This document shows, one piece after another, positions 604 to 64,000 of a stretch of 64,000 nucleotides of DNA (the stretch's first letter is position 1; each line of letters starts with the position of its first letter). Below the pieces are notes generated by a model that searched no databases, was not told the DNA's origin, and worked only from the letters and a program-made list of their open reading frames with translations. The stretch is from Octopus vulgaris (lineage: Eukaryota). The stretch is taken from contig OX597823.1 of NCBI GenBank assembly GCA_951406725.2, positions 103,106,001 through 103,170,000 of the forward strand. Direction: 5' to 3'. Position numbers and translations under genes: made by a program.

Positions 604-3600
604 GAACAGGCTTTTTTCAATTTCTGTCTACCAAATCCACTCACAAGGCTTTGGTCAGCGCAAGACAATAGTAGAAGACACTTGACCAAAGTACTGCGCA
701 GTAGGACTGAACCTGGAACCATGTGGCTGGTAACCAAGCTACTTACCATACAGCCAACCCTGAGCCTATATATGTTCATATTGGTTTGAAACAAAGTTTT
801 GTCTGGCAGAAATGAAGAGATCAAATGCGGGTAAGGTAACAAGTCAATGAAAATAATTTTCCCACTCCATTCAAATGGACTTATGACCAAAAGTATACCG
901 ATTCTGACCATTACCATTAACAAGTTGAGTAACTGAAATTATGATCATATCTACACCAACTACATAAATAAGAAAACACAGGCTGATCTTTTCTGAGTTG
1001 TTTGTGAGAGCTGCACTATCTTGATTGTTGAAATGCAAATTGATTGGTCTGGTGTGTTAGTGAAGGGGCTTCTCATGAATTAAACAATATTTCATCATAT
1101 ATCTGTCACATTACAGAAGCATTTTATTCCTATTTCTTTACTGCCCACAAGGGGCTAGACACAGAGGGGACAAACGGATTAAGTTGATTATATCGACTCC
1201 AGTGCGTGATTGGTACTTAATTTATCGACCCCAAAAGGATGAAAGGCAAAGTCGACCTTGGCGGAATTTGAACTCAGAACGTAACAGCAGATGAAATACC
1301 TATTTCTTTACTGCCCACAAGGGGCTAGAAACAGAGGGGGCAAACAAGGACAGACAAACAGATTAAGTCGATTATATCGACCCCAGTGCATAACGTACTT
1401 AATTTATCGACCTCGAAAGGATGAAAGGCAAAGTCGACCTCGGCGGAATTTGAACTCGGAATGTAACGGCAGACGAAATAATGCTAAGCATTTCGCCCAG
1501 CGTGCTAATGATTCTGCCAGCATTTTATTCCTGGGCACGTAAAAGCATCCACCACACTCTCGGAGTGGTTGGCATTAGGAAGGGCATCCAGCTGTAGAAA
1601 CTCTGCCAGATCAGATTGGAGTCTGGTTCGCCAGCCCTCAGTCAAATCGTCCAACCCATGTTAGCATGGAAAGCGGACATTAAACGATGATGATGACATG
1701 GAATTCCATACGATAAAGTATATTTCCCTTTAACTTTTATGTAACATGAAATCAACAGAAAATATGGCTTTACAGAAATTCCAAATTGCAAAAAAGTTTT
1801 TTCTGGAACAAATACATGTGATACCTATAATTAAAACAACTGGTTCTATTAATGTCTTGTCACACTATAATCTTATATAAAGTTTAACATTTCAGTGTTT
1901 AAACTGGCCATATCAAACCCAAATATTCTGCCTGTTTTATGTCCAAACTGGCCAGATCTAGACTCTCACACCTTGCTCTTTTTCTTGTTTCAGTCATTCA
2001 ACTGTGGCCATGCTGGAGCATCGCTTTTAGTCGAGCAAATCGACCCCAGGACTTATTCTTTGTAAGCCTAGTACTTATTCCATTGATCTCTTTTGCTGAA
2101 CCGCTAAGTTACGGAGAGGTAAATACACCAGCATCGGTTGTCAAGTGATGTTGGGGGGACAAACACAAACACACGCACATATATATACGGTGGGCTTCTT
2201 TCAGTTTCCATCTACCAAATTCACTCACAAGGCTTTGGTCGGCCCAAGGCTATAGTAGGTGCCACGCAGTGGGACTGAACCCGGAACCATGTGGTTGGTA
2301 AGCAAGCTACTTACCACACAGCCACTCCTGCACCTACCCTACAACGCCATTCTAAAAATAATTAATCAGATCATTCAAAACTCAAAGCTATAAGGTGATG
2401 CATGATTAATTCAAAACAATGTAAATAAATAAACATTACACTTGACAGAGTAATCTGAATGCTAAAGAGTTACTTTGCAAAGTAACAAAACATTCATCAG
2501 TTGTTACACATGTGATTGACCATGACATTTTGGTACCAACCTACCTGAGCCACCCTTTTCTATGATTCTGACTTCCTGTTACTAAGTGATCTAAATTAAA
2601 TAAATTAAAACTTGGCATTAAAATTTCACTTCTATTTATGTTCCAAACACCATTTTAATAAAAGCAAAGTTATTTTATTAAATTCTTCAAAAGCTGTGTA
2701 TTTCAACAGAAATTTGGTAACAAAAGGGTTAAGGAATCTACAGTTAGAGTGGTCAGCCCAATTTAAGTTTTAAGTTTGCCAGGGATTGGTCTAGCATAAT
2801 GGTGGTTCACAATACAAGTCACCAACTAGAAGGGCCAATCTAATGGCTCTTTTCTCTATAATATGTGAATGTTGCACATGCATAGCCATATGGTAAGAAA
2901 CTGGCTTCCCAGGCACATACTTTCAGGTTCAATCCTGCTGCATGTTTTCTGAAGTCTTGCACTGACCAAAGCCTTGTGAGTGAATCTGGTTGACGGAAAC
3001 TGAAAGAAGCCTGTTGTATGTGTTACTGTCTTGACTTCGTGTTGATAGTTGTGAAACAAGTGTTTCTGTAATGCAAGCAGTTTCCTCCATTTACAGTCTT
3101 ATGTGAAAACATTTCTGGTCATTGGGGAAAATATTACCTTACTTGGAAGCAGTTGAGGGTTGGCAACAAGAGGGGCATCAGCATCTGGCCATAGAAGATT
3201 TGCCTCAACTAATTCCATGCCAACGTATAAAAGTGGATGTTAAAATGATGATGATGATATTACAACACTTCAAGTGGAACGTTAGAAGCATTGATCTCAG
3301 AGGACTTGTGAAGGTCATAAGTACTTCTCTTCCTTCCAGACTCAATAATCTTTTATCTTTTACTTGTTTCAGTCATTAGACTGCAGCCTTACTAGGGCAC
3401 CACCTTGAAGAACTTTTTAGTTGTATGAATCGACCCCAGGACTTATTCTTGTTAAGCCTGGTACTTATTCTATCAGTCTATTTTGCCAAACCACTAAGCT
3501 ATAATGACATAAACACACTGACACAGGTTATCAAGTAGCAGTGGGAGACAAAGACACATCATCATCGTTTAACGTCCGCTTTCCATGCTAGCATAGGTTG

Positions 3601-3911
3601 GACGATTTTTGACTGAGGGCTGGCAAACCAGATGGCTCACCAGGCTCCAATCTTGATGCCCTTCCTAACGCCAACCACTCCGAGAGTGTAGTGGGTGCTT
3701 TTTACGTGCCACCGACACGGCGGTACTGGCAACGACCTCGCTCGAATCTTTTTACACATGCCACCGGCACAGGTGACAGTAAGGCGACGCTGGTAACGAT
3801 CACACTCGAATAGTGCCTTTTATGTGCCACCGGCACAGAAGCCAGTTGGCTGCTCTGGCAACGATCTCGCTCGAATGGTGCTCTTGGCACCCTGTATTAC
3901 TTGTATGTATG

Positions 3912-9364: not shown

Positions 9365-9795
9365 ATTGGTGACCCCAAGTAAAAAAAAATAAAAAAGAAC
9401 AGAAGACGCAGCGAACAGGTTTTGCCAGTTAGAGCACTGAACACTCAGTTTTCACTTTCATTTTTCTTTTCCTTTCAGGACGGCGAAGGTGCGTAAAAAC
9501 AAAAGTTTATTCATCGCACTCAGTACACTAAAAAAAAAAAAAAAAAAAAAAAAGAAACACACACATTATTTTTTTTCTTTTCTGTACCTTTGTTTTTCCT
9601 TTGTGCACACACACACTTATTCTTTACTACCCACGAGGTGCACACACACACTTATTCTTTACTACCCACGAGGTGCACACACACACACACCAGTACACAA
9701 AACACGAATTTTGATTTGCTTTGTCTATTCCATGTGTTCTCCACTTCTCGTTCTTCCTTCTGTCCCCTTTCTGACAGGCGATTCTTCAGACAAAC

Positions 9796-10468
9796 ATGGC
9801 TGCATCAGGTTTGCCTTCATTCACAGGGGATGTGGGTCTGTGGTTTGCCCAGGTGGAGTCGCATTTTGACGCACATGCCATTCCTCCACAGCAGCAGTTG
9901 CATCTGCTATATTCAAGTTTGCATCCCCGACTCGCCACATCGGTCAGGGATCTCATAATAAGTCCCTACCCGGACGCCACATACGCGTCCGTAAAAGCCG
10001 AAATCCTCCACCACAACACGCGGTCAGAGGAGAGTAATTTTAAGGAGCTGATGGCCGAGGAACAGTTGGGATACAGGACTCCATCCCAGTTCCTGCGCCA
10101 CCTATGGGAGCTGAGCGGGAACGCAGCAGACGTGCCGCTCTTACGGAGGATTTTCTTCTCCAGGTTGCCTGCCCACGTGCAGACAATGTTGGCCACGGTA
10201 CTGGAGTCTGTGTCAGTAGACCAGATTGCTACGATGGCCGATAAAATATTGGAATTTCCGAAACCATTTCCATCGCGAGGCCTGTGCGCATGTACAGAGC
10301 CCCCCTCCGACAGTTTCTCCGACGCAAAATTCACTAGCTGAGCGGCTCGATGCGCTCACGCGGCGAATCGATGATCTGTGCCGTGTGATCGGGCGCCGAC
10401 CACGCAGTCGTAGTTGCAGTGGCTCTGCCGAAAAGGCAGAACGGTGTTTCCAGCCCTCGGAAAACTAA
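9796..10468 (+). pseudogene. Gypsy gag, frameshifted near 10335
   Basis: LWFAQVESHF...LGYRTPSQFLRHL...LRRIFFSRLP; continues in another frame as ERLDALTRRI...RSRSCS...KAERCFQPSEN*. Confidence 0.85.
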
Positions 10469-10499
10469 ATCCAGAGGAGGTGAGCACGTCACCTTCCTT

Positions 10500-13400
10500 C
10501 TCGTTTCCCAAAATCGTGCGTTCTTTGTAAAAGATCTGGTGTCAAAGAAATTCTTCATGGTGGACACCGGCTCTTGTTGCAGCATCTGGCCCCTTCGTCT
10601 GACTGCAGACAAGCCCAAGTGCTCTTCAATTGTCTTGCATGCCATTGACTCGTCTCCCATAACCACCTTCGGTCAGATTTTGCTGCGCCTCGACATCAAC
10701 CTTCGTTGAGACTTTCAATGGGTTTTCGTCATCGCTGACATCCCACATCCTATTCTCGGCGCTGATTTCTTGGATAGGTTTAATCTATTGGTGGATGTCA
10801 GGCATCGGAGGCTTCTTGATAGCATGACGTCGCTCTCTACGCCGACTGGGAGTTCCACCAATGCGGTCCTTAGCCCGACATTCTTTGTTGCCTCCTCTGG
10901 AGACGCTTTTCACTCTCTTTTGGCTTCATTTCCGGAGCTAGTGGACATTGCCTTTCAACCGGAAAAGCCTACCCACTCGACCCTCCATTTTATCACCACC
11001 ACTGGGCCACCTGTATTTTCGCACCCACGGCGCCTTGCGCCTGACCGACTAAAAACAGCTAGGGCCGAGTTTGAGCACATGCTTCAACTTGGCCTTATAC
11101 GCCCCTCCACCAGCCCATGGGCGTCTCCCCTTCATTTGGTGCGAAAGGGCGAGTCTGATTTTCGCCCGGTAGGAGACTATCAACGCCTCAATGCCGTAAC
11201 AATAGCCGACAGATATCCAATCAGAATCTACAGGACTTTACGGCAAATCTCCATGGTTGTACCATTTTTTCGACGGTCGACCTTATACGCGCGTACCATC
11301 AAATACCGGTCAACCCAGCCGACGTTCCGAAAACTGCGATCACTACCCCTTTTGGGTGTTTTGAGTTTTTGTATATGAGTTTCGGTTTGCGGAATGCTAC
11401 TAGCACTTTCCAGCGTTTCATTGATGAGGTTGTCCGCGGTCTTGATTTTGTGTTTGCCTATGTCGATGATATACTCATTGCGAGCGACACACATGAAAAT
11501 CATCTCCAGCACCTTTCTCAGCTTTTTCAGCGTCTTCGTGCTTATAGTATATGTATAAATCCCGACAAGTGTGTTTTTGGACGCTCTTCCCTAGATTTTC
11601 TAGGCCATCATATTGATTTGAGTGGAATCAGCCCCCTGTCGTCAAAGGTCGATGCCATTCAACGCATCGCACCCCCCACTTCCTTGCGCCAGCTCAGGCA
11701 TTGTCTAGGGATGATCAATTTCTACAGACGTTTTATTCCCGGTTGTGCAGATAAGCTACTTCCTCTCACCAGGCTATTAAAGGACACTCCTAGAAAGGAC
11801 GGTCAAGTCACCCTCTCTGTTGAGGCACTGACAGCCTTTGAGTGCATTAAGGAGCTGGCTTCTGTTTCTTTGCTTGCACATCCGGTTCCTGGTGCTTCTC
11901 TCTCTTTGACTGTTGACGCATTGGACACTGCGATTGGCGCTGTGTTACAACACACAGTGGATGATCATATTCGACCTCTAGCTTTCTTTTCCCGCCAACT
12001 GCAACCAGCTGAACGACGATACAGTACCTTTGATCGTGAGCTCCTAGCAATCTATCTATCGGTTCGTCATTTCCAGCATCAACTTGAAGGGCGAGATTTT
12101 GTGATCTATACGGATTACAAGCCCCTTACGTTTGCCCTGTGTTCAAAAACGGACAAACTCTCACCTTGTGCTTTCCGGCACCTGGATTTTATCTCTCAAT
12201 TCACTAGTAACATTCGACACATACCTGGAAAAGAGAACGTTCCTGCTGATGCTCTCTCTCGCCTTCCAGTCTGCACCCTTTTGTCTCCTGCTGCTATCGA
12301 CTTAACTGCCATCTCGCAGGAGCAGCCACCTTTGGCGTCGTTAGACTTAACTTCTCCCAAGTTCTCCTGTTGCCAGTTTTCCTACCTTCCGCTTCCGTCA
12401 GCCGAAGGCACCATTCTCTGTGATACTTCCACTGGTTCTCCCAGGCCACTTGTGCCTGAGAATCATCAACGCTCAGTGTTTGAAGCACTGCACTCCTTAT
12501 CACATCCTGGCATCGCTGCCACCCTTAAGCTGATCACTGCTCGGTTTTTCTGGCCGAATATGCGTTGCACTATTACTTCTTGGACACGCACCTGCTCCAA
12601 GTGTCAATGGTCCAAGATTCAACGGCACGTTCGTGCCCCGCTTGGACATTTTCCCCCTATGGAGGCCCGTTTTCGCCATGTCCACATCAATCTGGTTGGA
12701 CCATGGCCTGTGAGTCGCGGGTTTTCTTATCTGTTAACTTGTGTCGATCGTTTCTCCCGCTGGCCAGAAGCCATTCCGATAGCAGACATTTCTGCTGAGA
12801 CTGTTGCGCAAGCCTTCATTTCAAACTGGATTTCCCGTTTCAGAGTTCCGTCCAGATTGACTACTGATCGTGGACGTCAGTTTGAAGCTTCGCTATTTCG
12901 CGAATTGTTGTGCATTTTAGGTGTGCATCATATTCACACTACCAGCTATCATCCAGCATCTAATGGATTAGTTGAACGGTTTCATAGACAGCTCAAGGCC
13001 GCTCTTCGTGCCTCTTCAGATCCACAGTCCTGGATTGAATTTCTGCCAATTGTGCTTCTCGGTTGTCGGACTGCTGTCAAGGCAGACCTGGGGTTTTCTT
13101 CTGCAGAGCTGCTGTATGGTACCACACTGGCATTGCCTGGTACGATGTTGGTGCCAGACACTTCCCAGCTCCATGATCCGGCAACCTATGTCGCCAGACT
13201 GCGTTCATATTTCTCGAATCTTCCACCCATGGTTCCCAGGAAACAATCTCCACCATCCCATCTCCCGCCGGATATGGACACTTGGTCGCATGTTTTTGTT
13301 CGGGACGACTCTGTGAAGGGCCCACTTGTTTCTCCCTATAAAGGACCTTTCCGTGTGCTTTCTCGCACACCTAAGGTTTTCACCATTGAAATAAATGGTC

Positions 13401-13660
13401 ATTCGAAGACCGTTTCCGTGGACCAACTGAAGAAAGCATACTTTGAGATATCTTCATCTTTTGATGACAACCTTGCCACACCCACCTATGCACCTGCACA
13501 AGCACCTTCACCTGCACAGACACCTTTGCCTTCACCGGCTCCTACAACACCACCTTCGCCGTCAACGGGTGCCCCGAGCACACCATATGTTACAAGATCG
13601 GGCAGAACAGTGCATTGGCCCAAGAAACTCTCAAAGACAATTCTTATTTATCTTTCTTTC
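10500..13660 (+). pseudogene. Gypsy pol (protease-RT-RNaseH-integrase), disrupted
   Basis: PR VDTGS; RT SPWASPL...YVDDIL; RNase[14 protein letters not shown]; [33 protein letters not shown]. Lesions: in-frame TGA at 10707, frameshift near 11220, first catalytic integrase Asp appears as Asn (HINLVGP). Confidence 0.92.
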
Positions 13661-13790
13661 TTTCAAATTTCTTGTTTTTTGTATGACATTGTGTACCAAA
13701 TCTTCTGTGGGGATCGGCAAGCCATCTGTTTTTCTGCAGCACCACTACAAATTTTCTTGTCTTCGTACTTCTGCACTCGAGGGGGAGCCA

Positions 13791-14208
13791 TGTAGTGATG
13801 CTACTGTGTAAGGTTCAGCGCGCATGTGCAGAATGAAACTACTTCTGGGTGGCCACCGGAAGTCTTCCCCATGCGCATGTGCGGGAAACTGACCCCTGAG
13901 GAGCAGTAAACTCGATCACCCTCTCTGGCCATTTCAGCCCTCAGGAACAGACGTGCATTTGGTAGTCTCTGATAACTATACCGACTTAGCCGCGGACAAC
14001 ATCGAATCACTTCAACCAACCAACAAGAAGCTGTACAACAGATTCAGCTGCCGTTTTCCCTTCAGAAATATGTACACCATCACGAATAATAAACAACACT
14101 GCTGTCTTTCCCAGATAACTTGACTTCGTCTGTTATATTTAACTAAATTGAATGTGACGGGATTGGATCGACACCCCTTCAGTGATACCGATTCCAGATC
14201 CTGTTACA
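13791..14208 (+). repeat. 3' LTR (418 bp)
   Basis: Differs from the 5' LTR by an 8-bp indel and about 9 substitutions (counted by eye). Confidence 0.95.
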
Positions 14209-26000: not shown

Positions 26001-27602
26001 GTGATGGTGGTGGAGGGGAAGGCGGCGAAGTCAAAGGTATTGATGGTGGTGGCGTCAGAAGTTTGAATGGTATGTGTGTATGGCAGATGTGGTGGCGGTA
26101 CTGTTGTTTATCATGCAGCTTTGCAATAAATTCCAAGTCAACAAATTATTTCATTGTTTTGATGAAAATTGTTCATTGCTTGAAAAATATTGTTCAAGTT
26201 TAATAAAATTTGATATGTACTCAATGCATGAAGTGTCATTGTTGAGTCCAAGGCCCAATGAAGGGCCTTCCACAGGAGCTAGCTTAAAAGCCACCCAAAT
26301 AGGGCAGCTTTTAAGCTAGTGCTAACATGTTTGTGGCAAGACTAACTTTAATTAATCAATTAAACTATAGCAGTGTCTAAAAGTAAATGAAAGGTAAGGG
26401 AGGCAACTCGGAAGAAAAAAAAAAGAGGAAAATTTTAAATGATTTGATGGTCCAGAGACCACAACTTCCAGTTCATTGAAATTGGAAATAGGTAATATGG
26501 AGGCGTGGCTGTGTGGATAGGCATGACTGTGTGGTAAGACGTTTGCTTCCCAACCACATGGTTCTGGGTTCAGTCCCACTGTGTGACATCGTGAGCAAGT
26601 GTCTTCTACTATAACACCAGGCCAGCCAAAGTCTTGTGACTGGATTGGATAGATGGAAACTGAGAGGAGCCCATTGTGTGTATATATGTGTGGTGTATCT
26701 CCTTGACATTGTGAGATAGTTGTGAATAAGTGTCACTGACGTACCAGCAGTGTCATTCATCTCCAATATTCTGTGTGAACCTGTTTGGCCATGAGGAAAT
26801 ATTACCTTGCTTGGGATCAGGTGACAGATAGGATCCAGCAATCCATGAAAGCATGGAAAAGTGAATAGTATCTAATAATGATGATGAGTGACAACTCCAA
26901 ACATGTATTTGTCTGATTCTTCAGCATAGTATAATCTTTAACATGTGGCTATATCATCATCATCATCGTCTAATGTCCGCTTTCCATGTTAGCATAGGTT
27001 GGACAATATAACTGAGGGCTGGCGAACCAGACGGCTGCACCAGGCTCCAATCTTGATCTGGCAGAGTTTCTACAGCTGGATGCCCTTCCAAACACCAAGA
27101 TGCCCTTCCTAACGCCAGGATGCCCTTCCTAACGCCAGGATGTCCTTCCTAACACCAGGATGCCCTATGGAATCAGAGAAATATTTCTGCATGCTGGTAT
27201 AGCAAATTAACATTTGCTAATGGCTTCAAAGAATGTTGGAAGTGAATATCACAAATTTCCTTTTTAACTTCTGAAATCAATTGAGTCAGCTACTCATTGA
27301 TTGATTTCCCTCATTCTGTGATCACGTTATCCATTGTTTCCATTTTCTTTAGGTCTGTAGGTTATGGCTTGACTACTATATCTAGCAGGTTGATTGACCA
27401 TATAGCAGTTGTCTTCCATGGCACTTTAGGCGTGGCTCTGTGGTAAGAAGCTTGCTTCCCAACCACATGGTTCTGAGCTCAGTCCCACTGCATGGCACCT
27501 TGGGCACGTGTCTTCTACTATGGTTTTGGGCTGACCAAAGTCTTGTGAGTGGATTTGGTAGGCAGAAACTCAAAAGAAGCTCATTGTGTGTGTGTGTGTA
27601 TA

Positions 27603-27646
<44 letters not shown>

Positions 27647-28234
27647 ATTGAAGAAATGGAGTTGAACGAAGATTGAACAGAAATCGTTTTATTGCATTCT
27701 ACACGTGTTTCGAAAGGCACAATTTACCAAATTCCGATTGAATAAGGAGACCATATTGTGTCTTTCTCTTCAGGAAGAAATAGGAAATCCGTTGGAAAAA
27801 ACAAAAACAGAACAGAAGCGGAGCAAAACAAATCGAACGAGGCTCCTAAAGTTTGGCCATGGGCTCTTAGGAGCCTCGTTCGATTTGTTTTGCTCCGCCT
27901 CTGTTCTGTTTTTGTTTTTTCCAACGGATTTCCTATTTCTTCCTGAAGAGAAAGACACAATATGGTCTCCTTATTCAATCGGAATTTGGTAAATTGTGCC
28001 TTTCAAAACACGTGTAGAATGCAATAAAACGATTTCTGTTCAATCTTCGTTCAACTCCATTTCTTCAATTCACTAATAATATTAAAATTCAATTATCCGC
28101 ACCAACGCACGGTTGCAACACCATAGGGTTGTACCTCCAACCGTGCTGTCTTCTGCTGTGATTTTTGCTACCAAGGTATCGGTTAAACTTTTGATTAATC
28201 TGCAACAAGATTATTCATCTTTCTATTTCACAAA

Positions 28235-28266
<32 letters not shown>

Positions 28267-29262
28267 GTATATGTATGTATATGTATATATATATATGTAT
28301 ATTGCACTGGTATGGTCATGCAGTGAGAATGGATGAAGATAGGTGTGTGAGAAAGGGCCAATCCCTAGCAGTTGAGGGAGCCCGTGGAAGAGGTAGACCC
28401 AGGAAAACCTGGGACGAGGTGGTGAAGCACGACCTTCGTACTTTAGGCCTCACTGAGGAAATGACCAGCGACCGAGACCTCTGGAAGTATGCTGTACGTG
28501 AGAAGACCAGGCAGGACAAGTGAGCCCAGACCACTTATGAATGCCTTTCCTCCCTTGGACACAAAGTCTTGTTGAGGCAAGCGAAGTCGATATAGAACCT
28601 CATCCGACGACAGGCACCCATGCCAACCCCCTTTGCTTGCGAAGATATGTTGGGGCAAGCGAAATCGAAATCGAATTGAACCAGCCAGGATCCCTGGTCT
28701 GGTGGTACGTAAAAAGCACTATCCGACTCGTGGCCGATGCCAGTGCCGCCTCCACTGGCTTCCGTGCCGGTGGCACGTAAAATACACCAATCCGACCGTA
28801 CGACAGGCACCCATGCCAATCCCCCTTTGCTTGCGAAGACATGTTGGGGCAAGCGAAAGCGAAATCGAATTGAACCAGCCAGGATCCCTGGTCTGGTGGT
28901 ACGTAAAAAGCACTATCCGACTCGTGGCCGATGCCAGCGCCGCCTCGACTGGCTTCCGTGCCGGTGGCACATAAAATACACCAATCCGACCGTGGCCGTT
29001 TGCCAGCCTCGCCTGGCACCTGTGCAGGTGGCACGTAAAAAGCACCCACTACACTCACGGAGTGGTTGGCGTTAGGAAGGGCATCCAGCTGTAGAAACAT
29101 TGCCAGATAAGACTGGAGCCTGGTGCAGCCTTCTGGCTTCCCAGATCCCCGGTCGAACCGTCCAACCCATGCTAGCATGGAGAACGGACGTTAAACGATG
29201 ATGATGATGATGTATATATATGTATATATATATATGTATATGTATATATATACATATATATA

Positions 29263-53860: not shown

Positions 53861-54289
53861 TTGAATCACTGATAATCCTTTCTAATTCCGGTACAAAGTC
53901 AGCAGTTTTGGTGGGAGTAGAAGTCAATTACATGAACCCCAGTGCTCAACTGGTACTTACTTTATCAAACCTGGAAGGATGAAAAGCAAAGTCAACCTTG
54001 GCAGCATTAAACTCAGAATGTAAAGAGCCAGAAATAGATTTGAATTTTGGTACAAAGCCAGCAATTTTTAGGGTAAGGGTAGACGATTACATCAATGCCA
54101 CTACATGACCTTGGAACATAAAGAGCCAGAAGGGAAATGCTGCAAAGTGTTTTGTCTGACCTGCTAATGATTCTGCCAGATTGCTATCTTGAACTTGCTT
54201 TAAAATTATAATCCCAATTTAACCTTTGAAATATTGTAATACAAGGTTTTCCTTTCAGCTAACAGCAGCAGCAACAACAACAACCACCA

Positions 54290-55580
54290 CCTTTCTAGAC
54301 CTAGTCCTACATGCTCTATTTTGGCTACCTTCACTAGGAATATATTGGATCTCCTCTGAGGATCCACTTCTATGCAGAGCATCTTTATAGCATGGGATGG
54401 CATTGTGAAAAGCTACTTCATCCGAAGATAATGATGAAACCTGCTCCCCTATATTATTGACCATATTTTTAAGTATGACAGGTGGGTGATTAGACCCTTT
54501 GTCGATATAGCATAGCTTTTCATTGGGTTTATGAAAGGGCTTAGAGCTATTAGATCCTAAATCTAAATTGATGTCTAGAAAATTGACATTTTTTAGGTTT
54601 GTGTCTATCATAATTATCCAGCTTTTTCTTTGGAAGAATGCAATGAGATTCTTTCTGAGGCCATCAAGTTCATATTATGGGTGACTATAAGGCCATCATC
54701 CCTATATAACCCTATGTTTAACGAAGGAAATTCAGTTTTTTAAACTATATAAAATGTGAATGCTTATTAACATGCACAATTCTGCTCTGACATATGTCCA
54801 TTCTTTTTTACTCAGGTCAAAAAAAGTAGAGATTTCCTGGCATTTTACATGGTACATACTCTTTGGCAAAATCTAGTGCTCTGAGAAGTATAAGTCTGGA
54901 TATAGATGGGTAAAAGTCTACTATGTAAAACAGTGTAAATTTACAGGTGTTCTTATCTCTGATGCCTTTAAAACCAGTCTGTAATCAACCCATGATTATC
55001 CCAAAGATGTAAATTGAAGGCCCTACTTAATTTATCTAGAATTGAATCTATTTCTGTTTTTGTTGGGTTAATCAACCTACATTTAGGGTTTCTATTAAAA
55101 TTATTTTTATAGTCTTTAAGGGTGATAAAAGGGGAAGGGATTCTACTCTGTCACTAACATTAAGGTCGGAAGCGATTCTTCTTGCTTCAATGTTCACCTC
55201 TCTGTATAAATTATTTGTTTTTTGTACGTATCTGTGATGCTATTTAATAAGAGCCTGTTATGAAGATTTTTGTTGATTGCATATAAATTTTTTGCTTTGT
55301 CTGATTTCACAAAAATGTTGTCTGTTTTTAATATTATTAATTTTTCTTGCATAGTTTTTTTGTACTAGATCTGTGATTTTTCTAAATTTAATTCTCCTTG
55401 CCAGTTTAAACAGATCCCTTTCAAAAGGCTCTATTTCTTTGATAGCTGGTGGGTTTCTTCTGGACTTAAATCTGTATTTGTTTGTGTTTTCTTGTTTTTT
55501 TTTTATCAAAGAAATACACACAACATCTAATTTTGCAGATGAACTCCTCTGTTTTTTCTGTGAGGCTTTTTAAATATTGC
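54290..55580 (-). mobile_element. older degraded copy of a related Penelope-like (Naiad-type) element
   Basis: NFLDINLDL..KPNEKLCYIDKGSNHPPVILKNM..SSLSSDEVAF and FKSRRNPPAIKEIEPFERDL fragments; many stops and indels. Confidence 0.8.
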
Positions 55581-56945: not shown

Positions 56946-59402
56946 TTAAGACATGAGTAAGGGAGGGGGGACGTAAAGTTGCATGACTCTATACAAGTAT
57001 CGTATAGGTAGAGAAAAAAACGAAAGAAAGAGAGAGAAAAAAGAAAAAAAGGGGGAAGGAAAAAAAGAAGAAAAAAGGAGAGGTGGGGAAAAAAACGAAA
57101 TAAGAAAAATTACATATACAAGCTGTGTAACCACGTATATTGACATATATATAGAGACAAGTACACAAACACACGAGTTCAAGTGGATACATACACATAT
57201 GATTATGTATGTGTGTGCTTAAGTACAAACATACGCTCACTTACACATACACAGAGATGTATGCTTACAAATACATATTCGTGGCTATACACATATTTAC
57301 ATCAAAATTCTAATTTTTGACAACATTGCTTTTAAAAAAATGAAAATTATACGAAAGACATGTAAAATATAACACCCTATTTCGGATCATCTATAAATTA
57401 AAAATCAAAGTAAGCCTATACAATATAATAACATGAAATAAACTAAGCCGAAGGTTTTTCCTAAGGAATATGTAGAAATATAAACAAAATAAATAAAATA
57501 TATGCATGAGACTTTGCTATACGGAATGAAATCTGCATAGCGCGAAACAAATCCATCGTTGTGTTTACATACTAGTCCAAGAATCAAAATCAAAGTTTCA
57601 AAACTCAAAAATACAAAATATATACTCAATCCATATGGTATATTTATGTTTGACATTTTAAATTTGGTTGCGTGCCTGCATAAGTTCATCAGCTCACTTC
57701 TTTGATTCAAAGAATTATTGTCTTTGAATAAAATATAAAGTTTCTCTAACAAGCAAAGATTGCATCTAAAATTATTCTTGTGTGCTCCATGCCTGTATGG
57801 TGCCGCTCTGTCCAGAATGCTTCATGTCACGTTGAAAGGTGGGGTTTCCTTTTCTTTTAGTTCTCAGACATATTTTGCTAGGCTGGTCCTCTTCCTATTA
57901 TCTGGGTATTTAAATGAATTTTTATGCGAATAAAATTGCGTTTTAAACGAATTTTCCGAAGCCCCTGTATATGTCTTGTATTCCGATGAGCCTTCTATTT
58001 GTACCTTGGCTCTATAAACTACCCCTTTTACTAGACATTTCCCTTCTAACGGACAGGAGGATTCATTTATGCAATTGCATTTCTTAATGGGCTCGGCACC
58101 ATGTTTAATCTCAATCAGATTCCTATTATGCTGGCTAATGTAAGAGGCAAAATTTCTCCAACAAGAATAGCTAACCTTCAGGGTTCTTCTATTAAATATC
58201 CTATAGAATTTATGGTCCTGCTTAAAATGCCTAGAGACTAATTTCAAAAATTCCTTACCTATATTAGTCTTTACGGCCAAATTGAAAGCCGGGTTGAACC
58301 ACAAAACTTTCCTGGTCCTAGTTCTTCGCGCAGCATTATTATCAGCATTAAGCTGGTTGTATTGGATCTTCTCAGAGAATCCACTATTCCTTAATGCGCT
58401 ATCGTAATAAGGTGCAGCATTATGGAATGCTGCCTCGTCCGAAGAAATTGAAGATATTCTTCTACCTACATTGCTGACTAAGTTCCTAAGGATAACTGGT
58501 GGATGGTTTGAATCTTTGATAATAAACGATAGTTTTTCATTGGGCTTACGGTAAGGTTTAAATCTATCCGACCTTACATTAAAATTTACGTCTAAAAAAA
58601 TCTACACTATTCAGGTTAGTATCTATTGTAACCCGTAAGCCCATCCTTTGAAAGAAAGCTATAAGGTCCTTCCTACGTCTATCTGATTCATGGCCGTTTA
58701 AATTATGGGTGGCTATAAGGCCATAATCCCTATATAAACCTGCATCTATAAATGGGAATTCTATTTTTAGATTATGAAGAATAAAGGCTCCTATGAGCAT
58801 ACATAACTCAGCCCCGTCATATGCCCCATCGGTACATCGAAAAGAGAATCCTCACTCTTCTTAATCCAGGTGGAATCCTCAAAAAAAAGAAGTGATTTCC
58901 TCGCATGCATGATAATATCAATTTCCGAGCTATCGATGCCGACATACTGCTTGGCGAAGTCCAATGCCCTTAGGAGTAACGTCCTAGATATTGACGGGTA
59001 AAAGTCAATAATATCGAATTGTGTAAAACTGCAATTATTCTTATAGCTAATACCTTTAAACCACTCTATGGCAGACTTACTATTCTTCCAAATTCTCAAG
59101 TCTACTTCACTATCTAACTTAGTTAAAATACGGTCCAAAATATTTTTGCTAATAATGCCTATCACAGTTTTAGCCGGATTTATCAATCTACAATTGGGGT
59201 TTCTATTAAAATTGGCTTTATGGTCTTTTAGTGTAATAAAAGCTGGCCGTGGGGAAAGATATTCAATCCTATCACTAATCTTAAGATTGTTAGCTATTCC
59301 TCTTGCTTCCAAATTCACCTCTTTGTATATATTTGTGTTATCTTTTTTGTATGTATCTGTGACACTATTCGAAATCAGGCGCTTATATATATATATGGGT
59401 TA

Positions 59403-59769: not shown

Positions 59770-60116
59770 TCAGTTGGCATTTTTCACTGATACATATGGA
59801 TTATATTTTATGAAAAATCGAAGTGGTTTATTAACCCATATTTCATCCCCAGTTATATTAATTCTTTTGGAAATGTCAATCTCAGAATCTTCCACAGTAT
59901 CTCCACTTGATAACCATAAACGGTTGCTGGTTATCAAATCTTCTTTGTTGAATGTTTCCTTAGTGACATCAAGAGCCTGACAAAGTTTAGAAGGCCCACT
60001 ACATAAGTTCTTCTCTTTTATTGGTTTCAAAGGGTTCTTTTTTGAACGCAAACTTTGCATTTTCTCAAGCCCTGATATGGGTTGAAGTGCTCGTATCAAA
60101 ACAGCACAGCCATCTC
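59770..60116 (-). CDS. MPG: MPG terminal coding exon
   Basis: (G)DGCAVLIRALQPISGLEKM...NPYVSVKNAN*, 347 nt. Confidence 0.93.
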
Positions 60117-63100
60117 CTGCAGAAAACGAATTTTAATTTCAATTAAAAAAAATATTTCTATTGAGGTTTTTATCTTATAAATATGTCTGGTAAAATAGTC
60201 AACAATAAAAAATTAACTATTTTGAAATCAACGACATACAGAAAACATATATTAAGACCAAAATTTACAACTAAAAATGGTAGGTCAACTTACACAGTAA
60301 AATGACTTTGGAGGACTAAAAATTCCATATGAAATGGAATCCCTAAGTAGGGAGAAGGAGAGAGAGAGAACCATCAGTGTTCCCCACTGCCACTCATTTT
60401 GTTAAGTAACAATTAATTGAGTTGAGGTAGTTAACAAAAGAACAAAAAAACAATAACAAAGAATTATCACAAATCCAATTAACATTTACAAGCAGTTTAG
60501 TTACAAACTACCATTATCAAGCTTTGCTGCCTATTTCATTAATAGTTTATAAATGTAATGACATATAAGAGAATTATTTTTAAACTGCCTCAGGTCAATT
60601 CTTAATCAACAAAATAAACTGTTGTTTAATTGACATTTAATGTTTATTAAGATTCAATTACATATTAACATGATTTTTTGAAAGTTTCTTTTGTAAGAGT
60701 TTAATTTTCTTTTTCTCTGGTTTATGACTTTATACCCAAGTCACAAGCAAGAGTGCTACACACAGTGTGGTGAATCTTCATGTGGAGCTGAAATAACTTT
60801 TAGTTTTAAAAGTCAATCATAAAATAAGTCACAATACTTAGTGACAGAACAAACTGGCTATAGAGGCGATTCATTGGGTGAGATATTTCTATAATATATA
60901 CAAGTGTTATATACTTCAGTAATATATGATATGCCTATAATTTATCATAATTTATCATAGGCGTAGGAGTGGCTGTGTGGTAAGTAGCTTGCTTATGAAT
61001 CACATGGTTCCGGGTTCAGTCCCACTGTGTGGCACGTTGGGCACGTGTCTTCTACTATAGTCTCGGGCAGACCAAAGCCTTGTGAGTGGATTTGGTAGAC
61101 GGAAACTGAAAGAAGCCCGTCGTATATATGTATCATCATCATCATTTAGCGTCCGTTTTCCATGCTAGCATGGGTTGGATGGTTCAACTGGGGTCTGTGA
61201 AGCCGGAAGGCTTCATCAGGCCCAGTCAGATCTGGCAGTGTTTCTACGGCTGGATGCCCTTCCTAACGCCAACCACTCCGTGAGTGTAGTGGGTGCTTTT
61301 TACGTGCCACCTGCACAGGTGCCAGACAGAGCTGGCAAACGGCCACGAACGGATGGTGCTTTTACGTGCCACTGGTACGGAGGCCAGGCGAGGCAGGCAA
61401 CGGACACAAATGGATGGTGCTTTTACGTGCCACCGGCACGGGGGCCAGGCGAGTGCGTGTTTGTGTGTGTTTGTTTGTGTTTGTCCCCCCAACATCGCTT
61501 GACAACCAATGCTGGTGTGTTTACGTCCCTGTAACTTAGCGGTTCAGCAAAAGACACCGATAGAATAAGTACTAGGCTTACAAAGAATAAGTCCTGGGGT
61601 CAATTTGGTCGACTAAAAGGTGGTGCTCCAGTATGGCCACAGTCAAATGACTGAAACAAATAAAAGAGTAAAGAGTATAATATATTATGATAATATTCTA
61701 GCTTCGTTCAGTATAACTGTATACTGAATGGTTTAGCATAATGCTAATGAGAATAGTATTAAATTAGTATATGTTAACATCATCATCATCATCTGTTTTC
61801 CATGCTAGCATGGGTTGGACAGTTCGACCGGGGTCTGGTAAGCCATGGAGGCTGCACCGGGCTGCAGTCTGGCTTGGCAACCACTCCATGAATGTAGTGG
61901 GTGTTTTTTACGTGCCACCGGCACAGGGGCCAGAGGAGGCTGGCAAACGGCCACTATAGCACTATTCAGTATAACTATATACTGAATGTTTTGTTATAAT
62001 GCTAATGAGAATAGTCTTAAACAGGATTAAAATACCTTAAAATACCTTAACTAGTATACTGTCTGATAGAAATAGTAAGGTCTAAATATGTAAAAGAAAA
62101 TAATATCAAGTTGTTGAGATTTATTTTTATTGTAGTAGCAAACAGGTTTAATTCTTGAAAAATTTGAATACAGTCATATTCTCTGAGTAAGGAAAATTCC
62201 AATTTTTGAAGTTCATATGGGATTAGTCTACCTACAGCTTTTTCAGACCCTGTGAGACCTATTCCTCTTGAACTCTACATGCTGATGGCTGTAGATAAAA
62301 CATGAACAATGATGAAGTTCCTGAAGTTACGGAGAGGAAATGGTTAGTGTATAGCTTGGAATGCATGGGGGGGGGGAGTGGGTGTCTTGCTTTCTTTCAT
62401 CTGACACAACATGGATGTAGAGAAAGAAACAAGAAAGTCAGGTGGTCCTGACACAAAGCAATGAAGTTGGAACAATGGTACAGGTTTAATTTTCATTTGC
62501 AATGAAGGAAGAATACAACAATGGTTTCAGTTTACAAATAATTGTGAGATTATCATAGTTTTTACTTGTCCTTTTATTTCTGTATTCCATAGGAAAGTAA
62601 AATATTTGTACTAAATTGATGGTGATACAACAACATCATCATCATTGTTTAACGTCCGTTTTCCATGCTGGCATGGGTTGGACGGTTCGACCGGGGTCTG
62701 GGAAGCCAGGAGGCTGCACCAGGCTCCAGTCTGATCTTGCAGTGTTTCTACAGTTGGATGCCCTTCCTAACGCCAACCACTCCGTGAATGTAGTGGGTGC
62801 TTTTGCCACTGGCACGTGCCAGGGGAGGCTGGCAGTGGCCACGATTGGAACACATCTATATAATTAGTCATTGGGTAAATATTGCAGTGTAGGCAGATAA
62901 TCTCTGGGAAATTCAAGCCCAAAACTTGATTTCAAGTCTTAGTTATTTCACATAGCTAAAGAATTTGTTAAAGGGATAAGCATAACGCAATAGAATTTTC
63001 AATCTCTCCCACATCTATAAACTTAATATCTACATGGAGAGAAGTTAGTTAAATTCTATCCAGTAAGTCAGGCATTTTCTTTCTCTCTTCTTCACAATCC

Positions 63101-63983
63101 GAATGCACTTCAGTTTAGAATGTCTGTAAACTAAATCTATATGAAATAAAAATTTACTTTGCATTCACAAACCCTTGGCATATTTTACTCCCCACTCCTT
63201 CATTTCAACTCTCAGACACACAATCAAGAGAAACATTTGTAATTCATAGATGTCTTTAATCAGTTAACTATTCAGGACCCCTAGTGAAACCACTGAGCAC
63301 CCCTGTCACACTGCCAAATTCTGTTCTAAATATAAAAAGGTTTGTCTATATTTCATCTCATGGTATGTTCGAAACCCTTACGTGATCACTTGGCCACCAA
63401 GAAATAGCAGCTAAATCACATCCTACCATTTTAGAAAAGCAAAGACGCTGTAGCTAGTGTAGTTATAGAGTCCTAGATATACTATGCCTGAAACTGAAAT
63501 AGGATTTTCTTGCCTGGAATTCCTTTGATCAGTAATATGTTAAATGAGAGCTAACCTGGAAATAAACAACATCAATAGGAAGGAAATCTTACCAGAACTT
63601 GAGATATTCATACAACTGTACATACCATATATGGTATACACATAAAGAGTTCCTGGAGGCATGAACATAGCTTCAGTCCGTTTTGTTCTTCTATTGTTGT
63701 AAGAATGGGAACATGCATCTTCAATGCCACAGTATGCTTCTGTTTCCACTATTTTACCACAAACCTGAGAGCCATCATCGAATGCTCGTACAATATACTT
63801 GCCAAGAAGAGCTCTGCTAAGTTCTACACATTCTTTTTGGTAGAAAGTGCCTATAAGCCTAAGGCATGGATCAAACAGTTTTTCAATGCTTGAAGAACTT
63901 TCCTCCTTGTTTTGTTTGGCAAAATATTTACAAGTGGTTATTTCAGAATCTTTATGCTCAGCTTGTCTCTTTTTTGATGCCAT
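59770..63983 (-). CDS. MPG: DNA-3-methyladenine glycosylase (MPG/AAG), 2 coding exons (63983-63593 and 60116-59770), 245 aa
   Basis: Motifs LSRALLGK, GKIVETEAY, CSHSY, RTEAMFMPPGTLYVYTIYGMYSCMNISS, GDGCAVLIRALQP, LCSGPSKLCQAL, PLRFF. Donor G|GTAAG at 63593 and acceptor TTTTCTGCAG at 60116 join in phase 1. An extra upstream exon beyond the window edge cannot be excluded. Confidence 0.95.
60960..61676 (+). mobile_element. tRNA-derived SINE (family A) with an internal TA/TG microsatellite, split by an antisense RTE fragment
   Basis: A box TGGCTGTGTGG, B box GGTTCAGTCCC, tail GACTGAAACAA..AAAGA. Other copies at about 385-768(-), 1975-2335(-), 3350-4115(-), 27429-29545(+), 35095-35810(-), 37903-38300(+), 46171-46530(+), 50590-50760(-). 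Confidence 0.85.
63593..63983 (-). CDS. MPG: MPG first visible coding exon
   Basis: MASKKRQ...IVETEAY...YGMYSCMNISSS, 391 nt, GTAAG donor. Confidence 0.93.
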
Positions 63984-64000
63984 ATTTCTTTGCTTTCACT

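Follow-up and report, generated by a model that had tools for sequence, protein, structure and literature searches.

The palindrome and its setting

The window analysed here is a stretch of 64,000 nucleotides of the Octopus vulgaris genome (contig OX597823.1, positions 103,106,001 to 103,170,000, forward strand). The only host exons found in it are two of MPG (methylpurine-DNA glycosylase), at 59770-60132 and 63540-63995 on the minus strand, and a Pfam scan of 77 of the 173 candidate frames between 14,000 and 57,000 gave no match; the intronic position that the preliminary description assigned to the palindrome is putative. The window also holds the pol of an LTR retrotransposon (9775-13795, plus strand), with RT, RNase H and integrase domains in a broken frame, and broken copies of other Hydra-like Penelope-like elements (PLEs) at 57405-59399 and 54255-55569, both on the minus strand. 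In one of these broken PLEs, which over 192 aa shares 43% identity with the parent protein described below, the cysteine linker is still present (KCNCINESSCPL).

The feature under study is a palindrome with arms of 209 bp (27641-27849 and 27867-28075) that differ at two positions, 27817/27899 and 27711/28005. A 17-nt spacer (27850-27866) separates the arms, and the right arm extends 160 bp past the palindrome (28076-28235). This geometry agrees with the preliminary description of the locus, as does the (TA)n setting, since microsatellite flanks both ends. To the left a short repeat that is very abundant is present twice (26501-26689 and 27427-27599), together with a 20-bp unit with four occurrences (27078-27177); to the right is a 194-bp duplication (28627-28993). 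The features are listed below, with the evidence for each in brackets; in the numbering used throughout, q1 is window position 27850.

27586-27640, no strand: microsatellite of (TG)n/(TA)n on the left, target of the insertion (sequence)
27641-27849, minus: inverted "B arm", q18-q226, which terminates at site B (sequence comparison)
27697-27776, minus: minimal type I hammerhead whose core is intact; the cut is predicted to fall between 27700 and 27699 (sequence)
27850-28235, plus: direct "A arm", pseudo-LTR (pLTR) plus tail, q1-q386 (identity to other copies)
27850, plus: q1, likely capped transcription start of the element and hotspot of 5' truncation/inversion (arm-start counts)
27850-27866, plus: the "spacer", which is the first 17 nt of the direct arm and no special loop (other copies continue into the upstream element)
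27940-28019, plus: hammerhead with core GAAA changed to AAAA at 28005 (a CpG transition), predicted inactive (sequence; sampled arms)
28023-28028, plus: AATAAA, downstream of the predicted cut site (sequence; common to the sister family)
28075-28084, plus: site B, AT-rich, end point of the inverted arm and likely second priming site (copy survey)
28076-28235, plus: the "tail", 5' UTR of the element's ORF, on one arm only, ending at site A, 28226-28235 (tandem copies)
28236-28300, no strand: right (TA)n microsatellite (sequence)

The direct arm begins exactly at q1, and the A that precedes it is accounted for by the partner arm. The whole of 27850-28235 is colinear with the end of a 3.62-kb PLE: it is 99% identical to copies that retain upstream element sequence and 96.9-98.4% identical to three copies with frames of 885-908 aa (L036, L037 and L040). 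The length of about 160 bp first given for the tail is right; its supposed uniqueness is not, since a genome search returned 1135 candidates for it and it corresponds to the 5' UTR of the element. We identify the palindrome, with very high confidence, as a real and ordinary truncated PLE insertion.

The parent element and its relatives

What had been taken for an ORF-less cassette, a unit in its own right, belongs to an ORF-bearing element, of which it is one end in truncated form. A genome search with 27840-28235 returned 1708 candidates, 40 of which were scored, and the 1853 exact occurrences of an 18-mer from q193-210 put the number of arms at no fewer than 1,853. Most of the top copies run upstream of q1 into a common 3' UTR and ORF end. 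Intact ORFs of 899-908 aa were found, and some copies stand head to tail in units of 3622-3625 bp; in these tandem copies the ATG lies 46 nt beyond the end of the tail. The element shows tandem or partial-tandem pLTRs, an inverted truncated copy and a one-sided tail.

The single 908-aa ORF carries the RT motifs QFDI, PMGS and LYRDD and, at its C-terminus, a GIY-YIG-type domain whose residues (VYQ...YVG...R...E...N) align with those of homologs. By sequence, neither the protein nor its profile matched any entry in Pfam or the PDB, and among 63 aligned homologs RVT_1 was matched in one and GIY-YIG (PF01541) in three. A model predicted from these 63 sequences (mean pLDDT 79) found telomerase RTs as its top six Foldseek matches (E 1e-9). 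In all, 107 protein homologs were found, one of them from Argonauta hians. Residues 488-559 and 633-772 of the L037 ORF are low-confidence inserts missing in most homologs; the second is Ser/Asn-rich, and both recall the Asn-rich inserts of rotifer Penelopes in the excerpted account of PMC3846280.

The parent is an endonuclease-positive PLE. According to the part of PMC8557442 available, PLEs of the Hydra clade share an RW motif, DKT, CxxC/CxH around a conserved E/N, the absence of CCHH and a (TA)n target. The parent family has RWL, DKT, CNLC and CPH (FPH in one copy), lacks CCHH and prefers (TA)n. The CxCX5C linker of the clade, which most aligned homologs have, is missing from L036, from L038 and from the sister family, and we therefore file the element as Hydra-like rather than as a member of the clade. 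Hydra-clade elements, including the 2507-bp Hydra-1_Obim, have in common with it a hammerhead with a palindromic helix III, whereas the parent unit is 3.62 kb long with two low-confidence Ser/Asn-rich inserts (PMC8557442, in excerpt); the hammerhead listed there for Hydra-1_oBim also differs from that of the parent element.

Insertion units of endonuclease-positive PLEs, as described in excerpts of PMC8557442 and PMC3846280, likewise show partial tandems, an inverted truncated 5' copy, a tail on one arm, an AT-rich target and a hammerhead in the pLTR, with a tail of 30-40 bp instead of the 150-160 bp seen here. The layout of inverted pLTR plus tail is already published, and the copy statistics given below add to it. 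In the anole element PAc the ORF begins inside the hammerhead, whereas in the parent family the ATG comes only after the whole of the hammerhead and the two end sites. The parent family itself was not found described in the PLE literature covered, which was available in part.

A sister family (L028:2520-2900 and L250-L279) is 72% identical and has 2713 candidates in the genome. It targets (TA)n, lacks the cysteine linker and uses the same two end sites; TGACGTCA and TATAAA lie a short way upstream of where its alignment begins. In addition, the flanks of eight loci (L069, L132, L169, L171, L176, L184, L189 and L198) contain unrelated minimal hammerhead-like motifs, several of them with palindromic loops (ATAT, GCGC, AATT, AGCT), which suggests that the genome holds many PLE families.

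The hammerhead motif

The preliminary description recognized a minimal type I hammerhead of the PLE kind in an inverted pLTR, and this identification stands, as do the elements of its layout: CTGAAGA, the palindromic ACACGTGT, GTA and AATAAA. Each arm carries one such outward-facing motif, but the GAAAC attributed to both reads AAAAC in the right arm (28005 G>A), and the reported 12-bp stem II has 11 of 12 pairs, with one A.C mismatch. The core boxes CUGANGA, GAAA and UH are present in the left arm; the right arm lacks GAAA. At the window locus only the left motif is intact, because the change at 28005 breaks the right hammerhead core. The equivalent position is G in all 88 motif-matching arms of a 74-locus sample, and L031, outside that count, has the same change as the window.

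An Rfam search (E <= 10) matched no hammerhead family and returned only hairpin miRNA models, sub-threshold. Conservation was followed across 15 hand-picked variants, in which 93.9% of the cells in helices I-III are paired. Five of the 23 pairs are altered on both sides, a number reached in one of 500 shuffles of these variants, with most of the two-sided changes coming from a single sister-family row and helix I invariant. In the sister family ACATATGT replaces ACACGTGT and GTC replaces GTA. We read this pattern as a sign of structural selection on the motif.

The minimal type I hammerheads of metazoan PLEs, in the excerpts of PMC4209133, have a short helix I, a long helix II that begins with G and a palindromic helix III, as here; helix II is longer in the parent element (11-12 bp plus an inner hairpin). 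Pairs of minimal hammerheads on opposite strands, 100-700 bp apart, are also reported in that text. When two copies of the motif are folded together, the palindrome of one molecule pairs with that of the other (-40.7 kcal/mol, compared with 2 x -15.4 kcal/mol for the single copies), in agreement with the same source on a dimer model and on low activity. The hammerhead is the ordinary pLTR motif of the element, and it is predicted to need either a dimer or a helping protein in order to work. A read-through RNA of the window locus is predicted to form a rod of 209 bp, at -403 kcal/mol against -15 for the motif, so that the one intact motif would be buried. The proposal that either strand gives essentially the same ribozyme RNA thus fails on two counts, the mutated core on the plus strand and the rod.

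We also considered whether arm starts record ribozyme cleavage in vivo. The cut site is where 22 arms begin; at three control positions the numbers are 4, 12 and 25. Three of the 22 (L233, L238 and L249) read as internal deletions, and 12 of the 25 starts at the third control begin with TG and look like deletions of 1-2 nt; the corrected number is 19, against 4, 12 and 13. A Poisson test gives p 0.07 relative to the control with 13 and p 0.002 relative to an expected 9. Further mild clusters of starts lie near q72-76, q122 and q152. The excess is weak and was not taken to show in-vivo cleavage. At a single locus, L203, both arms begin at the cut site and flank a foreign GC-rich palindrome of 549 bp (3062-3610), which is suggestive support for cutting in vivo; the insert is possibly a captured RNA, and it had no match in Rfam. 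At another locus about 60 GC-rich bases are fused to the 5' end of an arm (L223:2745-2812); they resemble large-subunit rRNA but had no match in Rfam.

Copy survey and the origin of the mirror arm

Our main reading, to which we give a probability of about 0.88, is that the window holds the 5'-truncated, ORF-less pLTR end of a protein-coding PLE inserted in (TA)n, with a mirror arm likely derived from two primings of one capped RNA. Twin priming itself, taken as a separate part of this reading, we hold to be probable. A related process is familiar from LINE-1, in which a second nick primes internally and gives rise to a 5' inversion. The PLE studied here would differ in that its second priming site is fixed and its arms often overlap, which produces true palindromes.

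Two sets of copies bear on this question. The first is unselected and comprises the first 100 of the 1853 18-mer matches, which fall in 74 loci on one contig; the second was selected by a pattern search for palindromes whose centre lies at q1, which gave 41 matches at 37 loci. In the unselected sample nearly all arm ends run into (TA)n, and arms end at fixed AT-rich points, either site B (q226-236) or site A (q377-386). These 74 loci comprise 45 A/B, one B/B, one ?/B, no A/A and 27 that are one-armed within the stretch fetched, so that A/B accounts for 45 of the 47 head-to-head pairs; under independent use of the two sites at equal odds, 45 of 46 has a p of 7e-13. Among 26 distinct loci of the 37 centre-selected ones, 23 are A/B, one is B/B, one is A/A and one is unresolved. 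One A/A and one B/B locus thus run counter to a strict A/B rule.

In 46 A/B loci (BLAST definition, with the complex L176 and L185 left out), 13 have no overlap between the arms, the B arm is longer in 12, the A arm is longer in 11, and the two are within 10 nt of each other in 10. In the 21 of these 46 loci with enough overlap, divergence between arms is 0-3.4%, against a median of 4.5-12.3% to other loci. Unequal or non-overlapping A/B arms and low divergence within a locus are what two primings on one RNA predict, although gene conversion or one dominant source copy could also keep divergence low.

A second line of evidence comes from the point at which arms begin. Seventy-one arms start at q1 after a non-native base, compared with six at the control position q11. 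The preceding base is G in 42, A in 17 and T in 12, a share of G that departs from 0.33 with p 5e-6. In 41 q1 junctions, a set enriched for centre-selected palindromes, this base comes from the partner arm in 14 and is untemplated in 27, of which 17 are G. Untemplated G occurs on A arms as well as on B arms, and L088 and L103 have it on each of their two arms. An extra G copied from the cap marks the 5' ends of full-length LINE-1 copies, and the native context of q1, CAGTT, resembles the initiator consensus. We infer that q1 is the likely capped transcription start of the element. The Penelope of D. virilis has an internal TATA-less promoter with an Inr, according to the available part of PMC2377424. 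A start hotspot with an extra G is consistent with a capped sense RNA that was primed twice.

The insertion could then have proceeded as follows. The RNA of the element would start, capped, at 27850, and the endonuclease would nick both strands of the (TA)n target. From one nick, reverse transcription would be primed at site A (28226-28235); from the other it would be primed on this same RNA at site B (28075-28084), which lies 150-160 nt further upstream. Template jumping or microhomology would then join both antisense cDNAs by their 3' ends. In the window, the A cDNA would have reached the 5' end of the RNA and the B cDNA would have ended 17 nt short of it. Some junctions lie on short native palindromes (TTTCGAAA, GAATTC, GAGCTC-like), and symmetric junctions at such sites point to the use of inverted microhomology in joining. 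In vitro, an anole PLE shows two starts of reverse transcription that flank the tail, with both strands cleaved and extended (PMC11167929, in excerpt). How the inverted pLTR and one-sided tail form is stated as an open question in the available part of PMC8557442, and our literature search, at the level of titles and the beginnings of abstracts, found neither twin priming nor a cap-derived G applied to PLEs; older reviews and supplements may differ. The window copy itself is likely a dead end.

The closest competitor keeps the same parent and derives the mirror arm from self-priming, or fold-back, of one strand, followed by cleavage at site B and a later central deletion; we regard it as rather unlikely. 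Self-priming on an antisense template has been proposed for rotifer Penelopes (excerpts of PMC3846280), a micro-palindrome, AAACAGTTT, is native at q1, and symmetric centres on short palindromes occur at L146, L169, L190, L192, L193 and L203. The ten nearly symmetric pairs and the palindrome-seated junctions are likewise what a snap-back predicts, and a perfect fold-back followed by a one-sided deletion can mimic unequal arms at individual loci. However, in 25 of the 46 A/B loci the B arm has sequence that the A arm lacks, and the non-overlapping arms among them are impossible by fold-back without a subsequent deletion. Untemplated G at the sense 5' end of either arm argues for a capped sense template, and at one and the same centre the loop faces one way in L080 and L087 and the other way in L085 and L093.

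Very unlikely, in our view, is the independent, non-autonomous palindromic ribozyme cassette of the preliminary description, propagating as such. In its support are the 37 palindromes centred at q1, six of whose junction types recur 2-5 times; copies that start at q1 also retain the two end sites along with the likely promoter start, so that transcription and mobilisation in trans are possible in principle. Against it, the 37 palindromes have 21 different junctions, and that of the window is found once. Identical junctions occur on differing variants (GAACTAGG or GAACGAGG), with the loop in either orientation, and must therefore have formed independently. In the unselected sample, moreover, centres range from beyond q-1300 to q353. 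The mutated right core and the burying of the motif in a rod also speak against a ribozyme cassette. Non-LTR retrozymes, in the excerpts of bioRxiv 10.64898/2026.07.22.740005, are similarly ORF-less, with a type I hammerhead and kinship to PLE pLTRs, but are defined by short head-to-tail monomers that each carry a hammerhead; the window is head to head with one intact motif, the tandem units found are 3.62 kb long and ORF-bearing, and short tandem monomers are lacking. The independent-family reading was rejected on its variable centres, the unique window junction and the independent origin of the recurrent ones. The alternative considered alongside it, ordinary pLTRs with random inversion points, holds as regards the pLTRs; the inversion points are not fully random, given the hotspot at 27850.

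Finally, a fold-back artefact of assembly has a negligible probability: none of the listed contig pieces covers the entire locus, but the arms differ at two sites, have different flanks and end at distinct family-typical points, and the layout recurs at dozens of loci with separate junctions.

The window locus is ordinary, and its value lies in its family. With slightly better than even odds, we propose that the copies of this young family record how a PLE inserts: opposite (TA)n nicks would prime one capped sense RNA at two fixed sites separated by 150-160 nt, every two-armed insertion would be A plus B, and the enzyme would do so without a cysteine linker. If true, a single step would account for both the inverted pLTR and the one-sided tail, and this would count against the published model of antisense self-priming. 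The cysteine linker is thought to be tied to (TA)n targeting; the parent enzyme has lost it, and the family targets (TA)n without CxCX5C. The family, which has over 1,800 arms and includes several intact ORFs, yields base-level predictions of the transcription start and of the two priming sites, which are suited to an in-vitro system such as that described in the available part of PMC11167929. For the octopus genome, these insertions spread long hairpin-forming DNA, which should be annotated as PLE fragments and not as ribozyme genes.
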